This document shows positions 329-10,835 of a DNA stretch of 12,001 bases, one piece after another; positions within the stretch are counted from its first letter, which is position 1, and each line of letters begins with the position of its first letter. The stretch is from the NCBI GenBank assembly GCA_964648855.1, contig CAZYLT010000009.1:96968-108968 (forward strand), read 5' to 3'. The notes under the pieces are model-generated. The model was not told the DNA's origin. It made no database searches and saw nothing but the letters and a program-made list of their open reading frames with translations. A program made the translations under genes and the position numbers. Source of the stretch: an uncultured archaeon. Its GTDB lineage: Archaea > Asgardarchaeota > Thorarchaeia > Thorarchaeales > Thorarchaeaceae.

Positions 329-1723
329 TTGGTGTATGATGTTGCCATTGTAGGAACAGGTCCTGCAGGTATATTTTGTGCTCTGGAACTAATTGAATAT
401 CAGCCAGGCCTGAAGATTGCTCTGATTGAACGTGGCAAGAGCATCAATGAGAGATCTTGTCCTAACTCAAAGATGGCACGAGGTTGTACAAAATGTGACC
501 CGTGTGCAATCCTTGCAGGATGGGGTGGTGCTGGTGCATTTTCTGATGGCAAGCTCACAATTTCCACTCAGGTGGGGGGCTGGCTGGATGAGATTATTGG
601 CGAAGAGCGGTTGCTGAAACTCATTGAATATGTGGACGGGAAGTATCTGAAATACGGTGCGCCCGAAAAAATCTATGGTGCTGATGAGGACTCCACCGAG
701 AAATGGGTAAGAGATGCATTCCGTGTCGGAATGGAACTGATCCCCCAAAAAGTTAGACACATGGGACGAGAAGGGTGCATCGATGTCATGACTGGGATGT
801 ACTCCACGGTGAAAGACAAATCTGATATCTTGTTTAGTACCGAGGCCAAAGATATCCATGTAAGAGATGGGAAGGTTGTGGGCGTTGAGACCAATGGCGG
901 GGATAATATATCTGCGCGCTATGTCGTTGCCGCGCCTGGCCGAGTTGGTAATCAATGGCTCTCTCAACAAGCTGACCGTCTATCAATTAACAAAGGAAAC
1001 AATTACGTTGACATTGGTGTCAGAGTTGAGATCCCTGCATCAGTCATGGAAGAAATAGCAGGAGACCTCTATGAACCGAAACTTATCTATTATTCCAAGC
1101 AATTTGATGACAAGGTCCGTCTCTTCTGTTTCAATCCTGGTGGCGTAGTGACCAGTGAATACTATGACGAAATCCTAACAGTGAACGGGCAATCTTTTGC
1201 GAATAGGAAGACAAGGAATAGCAACTTCGCGCTACTCGTTTCCACGAAATTCACCGCCCCCTTTAATTCGCCAATTGAATATGGACGGTCAATCGCCCAA
1301 CTTGCCAATATGCTTGGTGATGGCGTATTGGTACAACGGCTGGCCGACTTACGGCGTGGTAAGAGAAGCACAGAATCGCGCGTAAAGCGTACGCCAATTC
1401 AGCCCACTCTGCCCAGTGCATGTCCGGGTGATTTGAGTTTCGCACTACCTTATCGACATCTTAGTTCCATCTTGGAGATGCTGGACGCATTGGATAATCT
1501 ATGTCCCGGTGTGGCGGACGACGGAACCTTGCTTTATGGAGTGGAAGTGAAATTTTATTCTTCCCGCTTGAAGCTTGATGAAAATCTCGAAACAAAAAAT
1601 GTAGGGAATCTTTATGCCGCGGGTGATGGGGCTGGCATTACGAGAGGTCTCATGCAAGCTTCGGTATCCGGAGTATTGGTTGCTAGAGATATCCTTCGGA
1701 AAGAAGGTATCGATACACCATAA
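329..1723 (+). CDS. NAD(P)/FAD-dependent oxidoreductase (uncharacterised FAD-dependent dehydrogenase family, COG2509-like)
   Basis: N-terminal Rossmann motif DVAIVGTGPAG, Cys cluster C-x8-CxxCxxC followed by the family motif GWGGAGAFSDGKL, and C-terminal NLYAAGDGAGITRGL FAD-binding motif. Start is TTG 329 or GTG 332, with GGAG upstream. Confidence 0.9.
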   Translation: MVYDVAIVGTGPAGIFCALELIEYQPGLKIALIERGKSINERSCPNSKMARGCTKCDPCAILAGWGGAGAFSDGKLTISTQVGGWLDEIIGEERLLKLIEYVDGKYLKYGAPEKIYGADEDSTEKWVRDAFRVGMELIPQKVRHMGREGCIDVMTGMYSTVKDKSDILFSTEAKDIHVRDGKVVGVETNGGDNISARYVVAAPGRVGNQWLSQQADRLSINKGNNYVDIGVRVEIPASVMEEIAGDLYEPKLIYYSKQFDDKVRLFCFNPGGVVTSEYYDEILTVNGQSFANRKTRNSNFALLVSTKFTAPFNSPIEYGRSIAQLANMLGDGVLVQRLADLRRGKRSTESRVKRTPIQPTLPSACPGDLSFALPYRHLSSILEMLDALDNLCPGVADDGTLLYGVEVKFYSSRLKLDENLETKNVGNLYAAGDGAGITRGLMQASVSGVLVARDILRKEGIDTP

Positions 1724-1739
1724 CCTCATTCACCCTTCC

Positions 1740-1886
1740 AAAACCTTTTATACCAAACGGTCCCTAGTGCTATTGAACAAATGGTCTATAGTTGACCAAT
1801 TTGTAGTACGTATAAGTAGGAGCCTACTGGTGACTCAGATGGGCGGTTTGTCCGCCCATGGGCTCCGGACTACGGGAGGAATAATA
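1740..1886 (+). promoter_or_regulatory. Regulatory region of hsp20-cdc48: two TATA-like boxes, three inverted repeats and an SD
   Basis: AAAACCTTTTATA (1740-1752); TGGTC-N7-GACCA within a longer imperfect repeat (1777-1804); TATAAG (1811-1816); AGTAGG-AG-CCTACT (1815-1828); ATGGGCGG-N5-CCGCCCAT (1839-1859); SD GGAGG (1875-1879). Confidence 0.6.
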
Positions 1887-2324
1887 ATGATTGATGACGA
1901 ATTTGATAGGTTTGTACGCCAAATGTTCGAACGTTTCTTCAATGGACCAATGAGTCCTGACCCCGATAGAGATGTTCAGATTAGAATAAGTACGGGGTTA
2001 AGTCCTTCACCTAATAGAGGATTTAGGCATGAAGAGGTGGAGGCTCCAAATTCTGAAACAATCGACCTTGGCGATAAATTCATGGTCCTAGTGCAGGATA
2101 TTGATACCAATGCAGCTCCTACTGCACATATAGAAGGTCGAGAAGTAGTTTTGAATGTTGGAAACGAATCTGATGAAAACTTGGAGTTTGAGCTGCCTTA
2201 TGCAGTAGATACTGAAAACTCATCTTTATCATTCAGAAATGGGATAATTGAAATTGTATTACCTAAATCAACTGAGATAGAAACAAGCTCGGACACCAAC
2301 GAGATAACGCTGAGCGCAGATTGA
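1887..2324 (+). CDS. hsp20: Small heat-shock protein (Hsp20/alpha-crystallin family), 145 aa
   Basis: Start reassigned from 1614 to ATG 1887, which has GGAGG 7 nt upstream. Phe-rich N-terminus ([15 protein letters not shown]), alpha-crystallin signature ELPYAVD...[16 protein letters not shown]-like tail (ITL). Lies 19 nt before cdc48, a known archaeal gene pairing. Confidence 0.85.
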
Positions 2325-7130: not shown

Positions 7131-7188
7131 CCACGATAGCCTTTTGAAGCTGTAAATGGTACCTCACAAGAAAATCCGAGGATTTACA

Positions 7189-8082
7189 ATGAGCGGATTC
7201 TATCCTATCTCTCCATTAGTGGGTCTCACGAACACAAGCTATGCGGCCCAAGCGGGAGTAATGAATGAGAAGTGGGCATGTAGAGTTGTTCGAGGCAAGA
7301 AGATTCTGACAGAGAAGACAATGCCTGACCTGAATCTGGAGAATTTCGTAGGCATCATCTATGGGCACATTCGTGTTGAAGGCTTGAGTCGTCACTCTGT
7401 GGCTATGTGTGCCGGTCGGCTTATGCAGTTTGCCAGAAGATACCAGCAATCTGGTGTTGCACCCGATTTTGAAGTAGCAGGCCTCATACGCCAAGACGGA
7501 ACCAAAACCGGAGTAGAAGCACCTATCTCCGAATCAACAGATGAGCAGCCATCTGGAGCTCCCGATATTTCTTCAGAGCCGCTGGGGACCTCTGAACTGC
7601 CTGGTTCACAGAGAATGAGTGATATTCCAGAGCTATCTCGGCTCAATCCAAAAGAAACTTGGGATCGGTTATCAACAGCATTTGGTGTTCTTCTTAGTGA
7701 AGTGGCAACTTATGGAGCTTCACTTCCAGAAGGGCATCTCGATGCAATGTTTGATAGGGCTGCAGACCGAGAAATTGCAGCCTGGACTGACCCTGAAAAT
7801 CCGGCTTCACTTGTTACAGGTTTTTGTGAGATGATGTATTCGTGTTCGGACGAAAGTCAGCTTCCCCTGACGGGGACTGATAACCTGACAATTGAGGTCT
7901 CTGGATGTAAATTACTGCGAATAGGAAGAGAGATTGCCTCCAAAAACGAATCGTATCCTGTTGGCTATCCATGCCAATATCATGAGAAAATTGCAAAAAA
8001 AATTGCGGAGATTACTGAATTGAATGTCTCTGTAAATACCTCCTCAACTGGATGCATGATCAAGATAGAACTTGGCACTTGA
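7189..8082 (+). CDS. Hypothetical two-domain protein: unknown N-terminal domain, acidic P/S/E linker, C-terminal V4R/ATC-hydrolase-like Cys-containing domain
   Basis: Long ORF; ATG 7189 preferred over 7156 because GAGGA lies at 7178-7182. The C-terminus LTIEVSGC...YPCQYH...VSVNTSSTGCMIKIEL resembles the strand-Cys / Pro-Cys-helix / strand-Cys-strand pattern of V4R-like folds. The CDS is confident, the fold is tentative. Confidence 0.7.
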   Translation: MSGFYPISPLVGLTNTSYAAQAGVMNEKWACRVVRGKKILTEKTMPDLNLENFVGIIYGHIRVEGLSRHSVAMCAGRLMQFARRYQQSGVAPDFEVAGLIRQDGTKTGVEAPISESTDEQPSGAPDISSEPLGTSELPGSQRMSDIPELSRLNPKETWDRLSTAFGVLLSEVATYGASLPEGHLDAMFDRAADREIAAWTDPENPASLVTGFCEMMYSCSDESQLPLTGTDNLTIEVSGCKLLRIGREIASKNESYPVGYPCQYHEKIAKKIAEITELNVSVNTSSTGCMIKIELGT

Positions 8083-8230
8083 ATGAAACTTTGCCATATT
8101 TCAATCCCTTAGAATGATTCAGTTGCTACCCCCTGATGGTTCTACAAAGGCAATAATCTTAAATCCCAACTCTAATATCATTAGAAGCTGATAGAGACTG
8201 CGTGGATTGCGTCTCTTGGGAGAATCAAAT

Positions 8231-8506
8231 ATGTCATACCTTACTTGGCGAGAATATGTCCGTTCCGGGCCTGTATGTTTGGGAGCAATTCTAATTATTG
8301 TCGGAGCCATTTGGGCACTGCTTCCAACGATGGAAATTACAGTGGTAGCGGGATACGATGCAATAATTGGCGCTGCTGTTGCTGTGATTGGCTTAATCCT
8401 AATTCTGATTGGCTTCTTCATGACAAAGAAGAAGAGAGACTCAGTACTCAGGCCAGTAGATACTAAACAGGAAGATGTTCCACCCCCGCCTCCACCACCA
8501 GACTAG
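8231..8506 (+). CDS. Small two-TM membrane protein with a C-terminal polyproline (Pro7) tail, 91 aa
   Basis: ATG 8231 preceded by GGGAGA. Two hydrophobic spans (VCLGAILIIVGAIWALL; AIIGAAVAVIGLILILIGFFM), a basic stop-transfer KKKR, and the tail DVPPPPPPPD. Confidence 0.85.
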   Translation: MSYLTWREYVRSGPVCLGAILIIVGAIWALLPTMEITVVAGYDAIIGAAVAVIGLILILIGFFMTKKKRDSVLRPVDTKQEDVPPPPPPPD

Positions 8507-8536: not shown

Positions 8537-8588
8537 GCCCCTCGTAAAGAATTCTTCTATTCTAGAGGGGCAAATTACTCTTTTTCTT
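8537..8588 (+). terminator. Putative stem-loop with T-rich tract after the polyproline membrane protein gene
   Basis: GCCCCTC (8537-8543) pairs with GAGGGGC (8565-8571), with an inner AGAAT/ATTCT stem, followed by CTCTTTTTCTT. Confidence 0.45.
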
Positions 8589-8691
8589 GTTAATAGAGCC
8601 ATGTTCCTACGCTGGGTGTTCCATCCGCCAAATGCTAATATGTAATCGTGTTTTTCAGAATACCCAACAGACTAGGGATGGGACTGGTCAA

Positions 8692-8982
8692 ATGACAGTA
8701 TTAGAATATAAAGACAGCAAATTTCATGAAACATCGAATGAGCCGATGTCAGGTGTTACCCTGAAGGTAGATGATCAAGCAAAGAAACTGATACTTACAA
8801 TTCCAAATGATGTAAGTATGATTCAGCGTCGTGCTGCTGAGAGAAATGCTAGGGGTATCCAGAAGACAGGCTATATGACGAAACGAGGCGCGAGCATCGG
8901 AAGGGGGTACGAATTAGTTATCGAGGGCACCGGTGGCGGTCTCCCTGATAGGCTCAAACAATCTCCGAGAGAAGTCTACTAG
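8692..8982 (+). CDS. Small protein, putative single-domain gelsolin/cofilin-superfamily (Asgard ProGel-like) actin regulator, 96 aa
   Basis: Start reassigned to ATG 8692. Pattern: beta hairpin (VLEY...FHE), strand LKVDD, strand KLILTI, long basic helix SMIQRRAAERNARGIQK, strand YELVIEG, tail LPDRLKQSPREVY. This matches my recollection of Asgard gelsolin domains and was not verified by search. Confidence 0.6.
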   Translation: MTVLEYKDSKFHETSNEPMSGVTLKVDDQAKKLILTIPNDVSMIQRRAAERNARGIQKTGYMTKRGASIGRGYELVIEGTGGGLPDRLKQSPREVY

Positions 8983-9071: not shown

Positions 9072-10835
9072 TTGTCAATGTCAGAGAAAGATGTCCGTAG
9101 AATGATTGAAGAGGCCACTAAAGAAGCGATGAAACAGTCATTTACGGAGGCTGGGCAAAAATACATCGCAGCAGCACAAGCCTATGATGAAGAGGGAAAA
9201 TTCGATGAGGCTGATGATCTTCGTAGACAGGCAGCAGAGAATTTTGTCAAGGCTGCTGAGAAGTACAGGTCATCAAAGAGCTTCAAAATTGCAGCTCTAA
9301 ACATGTGTTACGCTGGAGACGTCTATTCTGAACTGGCATCGACCGATCAAGCTCTTTCTACCTATGAAACGGCTGCAGAGGACCTTTATTCTGCTTCATC
9401 AGAGCATCTACTGTGGGGTGAGGATGCGGAAACTAAGAAGGGCACTGCCTTAGCAATGGCCGCAAGCATGCTCTATCTCATGATTGGTGAGCAAGAGAAG
9501 GCATTCAAAAGCTCCCGTCGTTTTGCCGCTGAGCATGGATCCAAATTAAGGTTTCCTGGAGTTGTAAGGCTCAGTCAAATTCCTCAGATGATAGAGGCTG
9601 CAATCAACTCGGTTGATTTGGATGCTTTTTCAGACGCAGAACGCGCAGCAGTCACTGAACTAAAGGCTGCCCTCGCAAGTGCAAATGCATCTGAGTTCGC
9701 ACCCTATGTCGACAAAGGCATCGAAATGGTTCGCGAGATTCTTCGGGGAAAACTGAAGGTACCCAAAATCTCTGCTCATCTGGACTTGCCCATCGACATG
9801 ACGTTCACAGAGGAATTTCCGCTTCAGGCGAATATCATGAATAATGGCGATGGAAGTGCGTTAGACCTCTCCATTGAATGGTTCTTGGATGATGGTCTTG
9901 ATATCGTGTCTGGCAAAAAGACAATGAAGCTCGGAATTTTGAAGGCAGGAGATGGAATATCTTTAGAGTTGCATGCTCGTGCAACTGATGAGCTAATTGG
10001 AGTTAAGGAATATTCCATCATCTTACGTGGCTCTTACAAAGATAAACTCAACACCGAATACTCTTTGCAAGCAGGTCCTGGAACGTTGGTCCTAAAGGAT
10101 TTCAAAGAAACCGAGAAATTAATGCATGACATCGACCTAACAGAAGGACGCATGGGAATCCTTTCCACATCTCTTATTGAATCTCCATTTGAACAAGAAC
10201 CCCTTTCTCGGCTAATCAACCAAACTTCGAAGAGCTTGGCTGGGGCTCGAGAGGATGTGCAGGAAAAGAAACTGCCCATCGCAAAGGCAAAAATCGCCGT
10301 GGTTAACAACTTAGTCGACACGATTGACCAGATTATCGCCGATGAAGAACTCTCTCAAAATATCATAGAGCGGCGAGAAGCAGAAAAGAAAAACTATGCA
10401 GCTTCTGAGATTCAATCACTCCATGGTAAGATAGCCTCGCTTATCGAGAAGCATCAGGATTCAATTCTCTCTGAATCTGACCGGGCTCTTGAGCAGTGGG
10501 ACCGGAGAGTAGAGCAAAAGGAAGAATTGTCTAAGAAACTAAAACAATCAGTGGACCATGCATCAGAAATCATTCATGAACTTGATGGTATCTATGACGT
10601 TTTACCGACGGCCGCTTCTACTGATGATCCTGAACTAGCTAAAGAGCGGTCGAAGATACGTAATTCACTGGATTCCGCAAGGTCTGATTTATCTGCTCTT
10701 CAGACTCAGCTAGAAGAGGCTAGAATGCATTCAGCTCTAAAGGCTGATGAACGTCCCAGTACTGCACCAAGCATAGAGCTGGCTCTCAAGACTCTTCGTG
10801 CTTTGAGGGATGAGATTGAGAGCCTATTAGCATAG
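9072..10835 (+). CDS. Hypothetical multidomain protein: alpha-SNAP/TPR-like helical repeats + Ig-like (CARDB/BatD-type) beta-sandwich + C-terminal coiled coil
   Basis: SD AAGGAG at 9061-9066; start TTG 9072 or ATG 9078. Ala-rich paired helices (EAGQKYIAAAQAY, AAENFVKAAEKY, AALNMCYAGDVY, ALSTYETAAEDL). Ig-like signature LQANIMNNGDGSALDLSI...LGILKAGD...SYKD. E/K/Q/L-rich heptad region to the end. No signal peptide or clear TM. Confidence 0.75.
   Translation: MSMSEKDVRRMIEEATKEAMKQSFTEAGQKYIAAAQAYDEEGKFDEADDLRRQAAENFVKAAEKYRSSKSFKIAALNMCYAGDVYSELASTDQALSTYETAAEDLYSASSEHLLWGEDAETKKGTALAMAASMLYLMIGEQEKAFKSSRRFAAEHGSKLRFPGVVRLSQIPQMIEAAINSVDLDAFSDAERAAVTELKAALASANASEFAPYVDKGIEMVREILRGKLKVPKISAHLDLPIDMTFTEEFPLQANIMNNGDGSALDLSIEWFLDDGLDIVSGKKTMKLGILKAGDGISLELHARATDELIGVKEYSIILRGSYKDKLNTEYSLQAGPGTLVLKDFKETEKLMHDIDLTEGRMGILSTSLIESPFEQEPLSRLINQTSKSLAGAREDVQEKKLPIAKAKIAVVNNLVDTIDQIIADEELSQNIIERREAEKKNYAASEIQSLHGKIASLIEKHQDSILSESDRALEQWDRRVEQKEELSKKLKQSVDHASEIIHELDGIYDVLPTAASTDDPELAKERSKIRNSLDSARSDLSALQTQLEEARMHSALKADERPSTAPSIELALKTLRALRDEIESLLA

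Follow-up and report, generated by a model that had tools for sequence, protein, structure and literature searches.

By sequence and predicted structure, the 96-residue protein P0001 is a very divergent branch of the gelsolin superfamily. Its gene lies within a 12,001-nt stretch (hereafter the window) of an uncultured Thorarchaeaceae archaeon (assembly GCA_964648855.1, contig CAZYLT010000009.1, positions 96,968-108,968 of the forward strand). P0001 founds an unannotated subfamily that is present in two copies in most Thorarchaeia genomes and has relatives across the Asgard archaea. What is new here is the sequence bridge that connects this subfamily to canonical gelsolins, its paralogue structure, the rejection of a WH2 motif in its tail and its phylum-wide distribution. 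We hold with high confidence that P0001 has a gelsolin/ADF-H fold and is homologous to the gelsolin superfamily; the whole statement, that it is a divergent gelsolin member acting as an actin regulator, is evenly balanced.

Locus, start codon and family

P0001 is a real gene that starts at position 8692. The mechanical open reading frame at 8587-8982 (+) predicts 131 aa from a TTG codon, exactly 35 codons more than the 96-aa frame, whereas homologues in a 34-sequence alignment begin MT(V/I/F)LEY. In orthologous loci the in-frame sequence 5' of the ATG is variable in length and without conservation, and in four of them (L062, L063, L067 and L058) a stop codon lies 0, 2 or 5 codons 5' of the ATG. 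Since the upstream stretch is unconserved and stops occur 0-5 codons before the ATGs of orthologues, the 96-aa form is right and the 35-codon extension is an artefact, as had been proposed by a reading made from the sequence alone. The same sequence-only reading described a 96-aa protein at 8692-8982, and all of the strings that it quoted are found in the translation: LKVDD at residues 24-28, KLILTI at 32-37, SMIQRRAAERNARGIQK at 42-58, YELVIE at 73-78 and DRLKQS at 86-91. It also gave DRLKQS as the tail of the protein; the string is present, but five more residues follow and the true C-terminus is SPREVY. The coordinates of these and the other features are collected in Table 1.

Table 1. Coordinates of the features discussed, given in window positions except for the last row
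Feature	Position	Strand	Basis
CDS of the 96-aa divergent gelsolin-superfamily protein P0001 (by sequence and predicted structure)	8692..8982 (stop codon counted)	+	Translation, homologues, model, bridged homology
Spurious 35-codon ORF extension (TTG start), really 5' untranslated/promoter region	8587..8691	+	Upstream sequence unconserved, stops in orthologues
N-terminal beta strands, residues 2-7, 10-14, 23-27, 32-36	8695..8799	+	DSSP, column statistics, HHalign
Long basic helix, residues 43-59	8818..8868	+	DSSP, column statistics, HHalign equivalence
Glycine-rich hairpin insertion, residues 60-72	8869..8907	+	DSSP, column statistics, HHalign
Last core strand (residues 74-78), G79-x-G81-G82 turn and short C-terminal helix L84-P85-D-R87-L88-K-Q	8911..8961	+	DSSP, HHalign, column statistics
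C-terminal hexapeptide SPREVY	8962..8979	+	Alignments; pLDDT ~60 here
Actin-gene insert loci (outside the window)	L098:2552-2616 (G009:C3); L095:1546-1610 (G008:C24)	+; -	

A search of ~5.8 billion clustered proteins yielded 91 relatives of P0001, most of them 96-97 aa long and 61-76% identical; those that are named carry the label hypothetical protein of Candidatus Thorarchaeota. The 34-sequence alignment has 22 invariant columns, including R47, A49, E50, R51, A53 and R54, and ends in the conserved pattern G-G-x-L-P-[DE]-[RK]-L-x-x-S-P-R-E-V-Y. For column statistics we used a set of 33 Thorarchaeota-type sequences, from which the chimeric P0089 was left out. P0089 is a 96-aa ENA metagenome protein whose first ~40 residues are an enolase N-terminus (PF03952) and whose remainder belongs to the P0001 family; it is probably an assembly chimera. 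The hexapeptide SPREVY is invariant in 33/33 of the Thorarchaeota-type sequences, while family members from other Asgard clades end in ...DQHEY or ...GYKYK, so that the feature common to the C-termini of all clades is a terminal or near-terminal Tyr.

A profile built from Thorarchaeota sequences only (A1) detects the family in 38 of 41 sampled Thorarchaeia genomes, including 24/24 of the high-quality ones and all 17 genera, with two copies per genome as the usual number. In the phylum-wide sample the same profile matches 90 of 151 Asgard genomes, a count that includes the bridge proteins described below. The second copy in the source genome, P0137 (L056:1774-2076:-, G000:C18), is ~100 aa long and also ends in SPREVY. 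Its flanking genes encode a multi-zinc-ribbon protein of 229 aa on one side and a PRC-barrel protein of 228 aa on the other. Zinc-ribbon and PRC-barrel genes are also found near a P0001-family gene in L002, a MAG that bears the label Lokiarchaeota and whose gene content suggests a genome of Thorarchaeota type; there, a gene for a histidine kinase stands between the family gene and the PRC-barrel gene.

Relatives in Helarchaeota carry the P0001-type domain C-terminal to a coiled coil of 150-250 aa, which by analogy would be a plausible dimeric cross-linker architecture. Pfam returned nothing, or generic coiled-coil noise, for these fused relatives; a homologue search with one of them, P0129, gave two matches, with low-complexity candidates dominating, and a profile search with a narrower family alignment (A5) recovered Helarchaeota-type members only. 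Two genes of this coiled-coil plus gelsolin-fold type (L129 and L135, on DATKTP01 contigs) occur in a MAG titled Candidatus Deferrimicrobium sp., a bacterial name that probably reflects mis-binning or mislabelling.

Predicted fold and homology to gelsolins

An AlphaFold2 model of P0001, built on the 34-sequence alignment, has a mean pLDDT of 82.3, with ten-residue blocks over residues 1-80 averaging 80-92 and the last 16 residues at ~60. DSSP applied to this model delimits the four N-terminal strands, the long helix and the last core strand as in Table 1, and places the hairpin at residues 61-69 and the C-terminal helix at 86-89, in agreement with the order strand-strand-long basic helix-strand that had been read from the sequence. 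The long helix is indeed basic (R46, R47, R51, R54 and K58), with R47, A49, E50, R51, A53, R54 and I56 invariant across the family; D27 and K32 are near-invariant in the N-terminal strand region, and G60, G66, R68, G70 and G72 of the hairpin are conserved family-wide.

The predicted model contains the mixed beta-sheet between a long helix and a short C-terminal helix that is expected of a gelsolin domain. Its best Foldseek match in the PDB is the Thorarchaeota ProGel in complex with actin (7c2f_B; E 9e-3, TM 0.60/0.65, rmsd 2.9 A), and the matches after 7C2F are nearly all domains of gelsolin, villin, adseverin, CapG and fragmin. A VIA-align scan of 48,161 chains, which is independent of Foldseek, again finds ProGel first (7c2f_D; Z 9.0, 72 aa, rmsd 3.0); a Z of 9 is by itself only moderately above the background of the tool, and the match spans the whole P0001 domain. 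Of the 31 rows that follow, 30 are gelsolin, villin, fragmin, ADF-H or cofilin chains, the exception being the gelsolin-like domain of Sec23a, with Z scores of 7.3-5.8 for gelsolin-family domains, 5.6-5.0 for ADF-H/cofilin and 5.2 for Sec23a. The gelsolin/cofilin fold suggested by the sequence-only reading is thus present in the AlphaFold2 model, on which both Foldseek and VIA agree. ADF-H/cofilin and the Sec23/24 gelsolin-like domains share this superfold with P0001 and score below the gelsolins; P0001 is missing the extra helices of cofilin, and the Sec23/24 domains are parts of large coat subunits.

Direct sequence comparison is far less telling. Scans of P0001 against Pfam and NCBIfam returned noise only, with no match to PF00626 (gathering score 21 bits) even at E<=1, a genome-wide PF00626 scan did not pick up the P0001 locus, and phmmer and A1 profile searches of PDB sequences retrieved nothing relevant. 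When the P0001 family is compared directly by HHalign with ProGel/1DGelX domains of Thorarchaeota (14 sequences), the alignment is colinear over the full length and weak (P 9e-4 to 2.5e-3), and the alignments to ProGel and 2DGel set KLILTIP against SIFLWKG or IYLWIG. The ProGel and 2DGel comparison sets were assembled from genome scans, a word-indexed search with the genome's own ProGel having given two sequences. The alignment with ProGel-type domains that the sequence-only reading had called for yields colinearity when made directly and becomes significant only by way of intermediates.

These intermediates are a group of Asgard proteins of 240-310 aa, from many families, whose N-terminal domains are matched by A1 with per-genome E values of 1e-7 to 1e-8. 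Eighteen of them were retrieved for comparison. They are recognized from both sides: by A1 at E 1e-6 to 1e-11 and by P0001-family HMMs at E 1e-6 to 1e-18, and likewise by a ProGel/1DGelX-only profile at E 2e-9 to 2.5e-4 and by ProGel-only and gelsolin-only HMMs at E 2e-9 to 1e-3. Six bridge proteins were scanned against Pfam; in five of them PF00626 comes out best, just below its threshold (12-20.5 bits). HHalign aligns the bridge group with the P0001 family, from which bridge sequences had been removed, over 99 columns (99.6%, E 1.8e-23), with the ProGel/1DGelX set (96.5%, E 8.3e-10) and with all Thorarchaeota gelsolin domains (95.4%, E 2e-8). Conversely, an HMM of the bridge group matches 66/66 P0001-family members and 14/14 ProGel/1DGelX domains, and the model of a bridge protein superposes on ProGel with a TM of 0.82 and an rmsd of 2.3 A. 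The bridge proteins combine the gelsolin LWxG motif with the helix pattern RR-x-A-x-R-x-A-x-SI-x-K-x-G[FY] of the P0001 family. It is because they link both sides that the homology of the P0001 family to canonical Asgard gelsolins is firm.

By sequence the bridge proteins are the closest relatives of the P0001 family, with which they share the helix motif and the G-x-x-IG hairpin; unlike P0001, they have kept LWxG, have a long C-terminal helix and a linker followed by a second domain, and are without the SPREVY end. Their N-terminal gelsolin-like domain is joined by a Pro-rich disordered linker to a C-terminal domain of one helix, four strands and another helix (model m203b62cf514d, pLDDT 77), and one 525-aa member of the group has two gelsolin-like domains. 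The source genome itself encodes a bridge protein (L128:1531-2325:+, G000:C1; further members are L110-L127). A homology of the C-terminal domain of the bridge proteins with domain X of the genome's own 1DGelX was considered and is unsupported (P 0.016 over 16 columns).

Relation to ProGel and the LKQS segment

PF00626 finds four gelsolin-domain proteins in this genome, two above threshold and two below: a 198-aa 2DGel, an 89-aa ProGel (29.6 bits; L010:1486-1755:-), a 92-aa ProGel-like protein and a 304-aa 1DGelX. Three further gelsolin-fold proteins of the same genome, namely P0001, its paralogue and the bridge protein, are missed. That P0001 is ProGel itself can be ruled out, as the genome has a separate ProGel and a ProGel-like paralogue and P0001 has no PF00626 match; because a canonical ProGel is separately encoded, P0001 is not its orthologue either. 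Run against a set of 74 sequences, a P0001-family HMM reaches the genome's own ProGel at E 0.076. Of the earlier description of P0001 as ProGel-like, a distant homology through the bridge proteins stands and the identification with ProGel falls.

ProGel (PDB 7C2F; Akil et al. 2020, PMC7444086) is nevertheless the natural point of comparison, being a stand-alone single domain of ~90 aa from the same lineage, the best structural match and colinear with P0001 from end to end in profile alignment. ProGel is without calcium-binding sites and none are evident in P0001. The two differ in that they share only 14-18% identity in structural alignments, without a direct significant sequence match, and in that P0001 has an Arg-rich long helix, the SPREVY tail and a glycine-rich hairpin ~9 residues longer than in ProGel, which has a gap there in HHalign. 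The LWxG signature of ProGel reads L-T-I-P in P0001: T-I-P stands where gelsolin domains have a conserved Trp-x-Gly behind their second core strand, the motif that Akil et al. 2020 call 'DWG'; this position is V/I-P in 30/33 Thorarchaeota-type sequences and W/F in other clades.

Domain 1 of gelsolin (G1) and of 2DGel likewise shares the fold and has an equivalent of the long helix, and P0001 differs from both in having no evident type I or type II calcium site. 2DGel is acidic (median pI 4.8), as is actin (4.95), and P0001 is basic (pI 9.5; family median 9.35). By alignment, the long helix of P0001 is the equivalent of the actin-contacting long helix of gelsolin G1 and ProGel; the actin-contacting role of this helix has been described for ProGel and 2DGel (PMC7444086).

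The sequence-only reading took P0001 for a ProGel-like protein with a WH2-like LKQS tail; such a tail would be an LKKT-type segment that makes a second contact with actin. Gelsolin G1 and the Asgard 2DGel do have a WH2-like motif after domain 1 (LRRV, and LRKV in this genome), L88 is invariant in the Thorarchaeota-type set and position 89 is K or R in 21 of 33 sequences. Both profile alignments, however, place E-G-x-G-G-x-L-P-D-R-L on the gelsolin D/E-G-x-E-P-x-x-F at the start of the domain's short C-terminal helix, and LPDRL falls on 'EPxxF', the C-terminal helix intrinsic to ProGel and the bridge proteins; the P0001 model has a helical turn at residues 86-89. LKQS begins two residues past the conserved Pro, whereas LRKV of the genome's own 2DGel lies ~22 residues past that Pro, and in the published 2DGel/actin structure the WH2-like motif is in the inter-domain linker (PMC7444086). 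The linker of P0001 would be too short to put an LKKT-like segment at the site that it occupies in gelsolin, and an amphipathic helix before LKQS is absent, the preceding residues being EG-x-GG-x.

Conservation points the same way. Position 89 is K14/T12/R7 in the 33 Thorarchaeota-type sequences, with T about as common as K; position 90 is H23/Q6; and position 91 is S33 in Thorarchaeota and S/D/E overall, never T or V. Other clades read LLRD or LLQE here, that is L, R/Q and D/E. What is conserved around the segment is P85, R87, L88 and the terminal Tyr. The WH2 assignment is not supported: the alignments make LKQS part of the C-terminal helix of the domain itself, homologues do not keep it as LKK[TV], and no amphipathic helix comes before it. 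A minimal ProGel with a WH2-like tail is the least probable of the readings considered here.

Actin or another partner

Actin binding is the default expectation for P0001 from homology and fold, and by this analogy we give it an even chance. P0001 would then be a stand-alone, single-domain and very divergent gelsolin/ADF-H member that binds actin through its long helix, as do ProGel and domain 1 of 2DGel; it may serve as a small calcium-independent regulator of the monomer or of the filament side, with the glycine-rich hairpin and the invariant SPREVY end conferring a specificity absent from ProGel. Every Asgard gelsolin-domain protein characterised so far acts on actin (PMC7444086, PMC9433394). 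The contrast in charge between the basic P0001 family and acidic actin can, by analogy, be put on the same side.

Several observations count against actin binding. In the P0001 family the long helix exposes a conserved face of charged residues (R, E, R, R), and the face that gelsolin G1 turns toward actin is apolar. The LWxG signature is lost and PF00626 does not match, and a gelsolin fold is not always actin-binding. ProGel itself binds rabbit actin weakly (Kd ~337 uM). The most conserved parts of the family, the glycine-rich hairpin and SPREVY, are without counterpart in actin-binding gelsolins, which suggests another partner. In the main text on Lokiactin co-immunoprecipitation from L. ossiferum, the enriched proteins given are only annotated gelsolins, a profilin and an ARF GTPase, a result that bears on the P0001 family only if L. 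ossiferum has a member.

Such a partner is the substance of a second, possible though doubtful reading: the gelsolin fold would have been turned to a partner other than actin, as in Sec23/24, and P0001 would be a small adaptor that docks through its free SPREVY carboxy-terminus, its basic helix or both. The partner could be, for example, the SNAP/TPR-like coiled-coil neighbour in a Thorarchaeota-specific membrane-associated module. Four co-oriented genes, in the order ~300-aa protein, two-TM protein with a Pro7 tail, P0001 and ~590-aa SNAP/TPR-like plus coiled-coil protein, are kept in three other Thorarchaeota genomes, in which the P0001 copies are 64-72% identical; TPR domains bind ligands of the type represented by an invariant free C-terminus. 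The match of the Sec23a gelsolin-like domain to the P0001 model (Z 5.2) fits this reading as well, as do the best-conserved surfaces of the family, which differ from those of actin-binding gelsolins. Against it, the genes of the block are separated by gaps of 90-186 nt and the block is undetected outside Thorarchaeaceae, with the paralogue and the non-Thorarchaeota members in unrelated contexts; no recurring neighbour was found outside Thorarchaeaceae, where the neighbours are unrelated housekeeping genes. The SNAP/TPR matches of the 587-aa neighbour fall far short of threshold (E 0.011-0.57), a search of PDB sequences found no relative of it, and actin-binding gelsolins match P0001 better than Sec23 does (Z 9.0 and ~7 against 5.2). 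A fully specified version, in which the C-terminal Tyr peptide plugs into the SNAP/TPR-like neighbour and, with the polyproline-tailed anchor, forms an Asgard-specific membrane-remodelling/trafficking module, is unlikely; the non-actin gelsolin-like domain of COPII Sec23/24 would be the eukaryotic parallel to such an archaeal adaptor module.

Directly 5' of P0001, at 8207-8506 (+) of the window with a probable start at ATG 8231, lies the gene of the small two-TM protein, whose seven C-terminal prolines are encoded by mixed Pro codons; the pair is conserved in other Thorarchaeota. Polyproline is a classical profilin ligand. The 308-aa protein at 7156-8082 (+) is without detectable family, and the 587-aa protein at 9072-10835 (+) has very weak N-terminal SNAP/TPR similarity and a long C-terminal coiled coil; searches of PDB sequences found no relatives of either, and these two genes adjoin P0001 conservedly only within Thorarchaeaceae. 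Farther away, the ORF at 1614-2324 (+) lies just 5' of cdc48 and overlaps with the FAD-dependent gene before it; its true length is probably much smaller (143 aa in L003). Its C-terminus resembles by eye a small heat-shock protein, and Pfam gives no match.

In a third reading P0001, small and basic, would bind something anionic other than a protein, such as phosphoinositide-like head groups or nucleic acid, on a gelsolin-like scaffold, with the Arg-rich helix and the G-x-R-x-G-x-G hairpin as the binding surface. The high pI of P0001 and its family fits, as does the invariance of R47, R51, R54 and R68 with flanking glycines, and gelsolin and cofilin are known phosphoinositide binders. Yet the basic face of the helix has an invariant Glu at its centre, no nucleic-acid-binding family or fold is among the top structural matches of P0001 or in its Pfam/NCBIfam scans, and to our knowledge phosphoinositide-type regulation is unproven in archaeal membranes. 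We regard this third reading as highly improbable.

The actin genes of two Thorarchaeia genomes, which belong to different genera, are interrupted at one and the same codon by a 30-nt insert that brings in an in-frame stop (...TFQ|insert|MWVSRKEF); the other 29 genomes sampled are without it. Both inserts fold alike, with a 4-bp helix (CCAG/CUGG), a 3-nt bulge (AAU), a UAA-containing bulge and compensatory changes in the hairpin; if both sides are cut behind bulge nucleotide 2, exactly 30 nt drop out and the conserved Q-K-M-W is read again. The insert looks like a candidate bulge-helix-bulge (EndA-type) intron in actin mRNA, and a limited search of the literature turned up no earlier description of it.

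At present the regulators of the Asgard actin cytoskeleton are tallied by database annotation. The set missed by PF00626, comprising P0001, its paralogue and the bridge protein, occurs throughout the class and in many further Asgard lineages, and the bridge proteins provide a graded series that shows the extent to which a gelsolin domain can diverge. Should the proteins of this set bind actin, the pre-eukaryotic toolkit for actin regulation would be larger and more diversified than assumed; if they do not, they would be a second example besides Sec23/24, and one on the archaeal side, of this fold being recruited to a different function.
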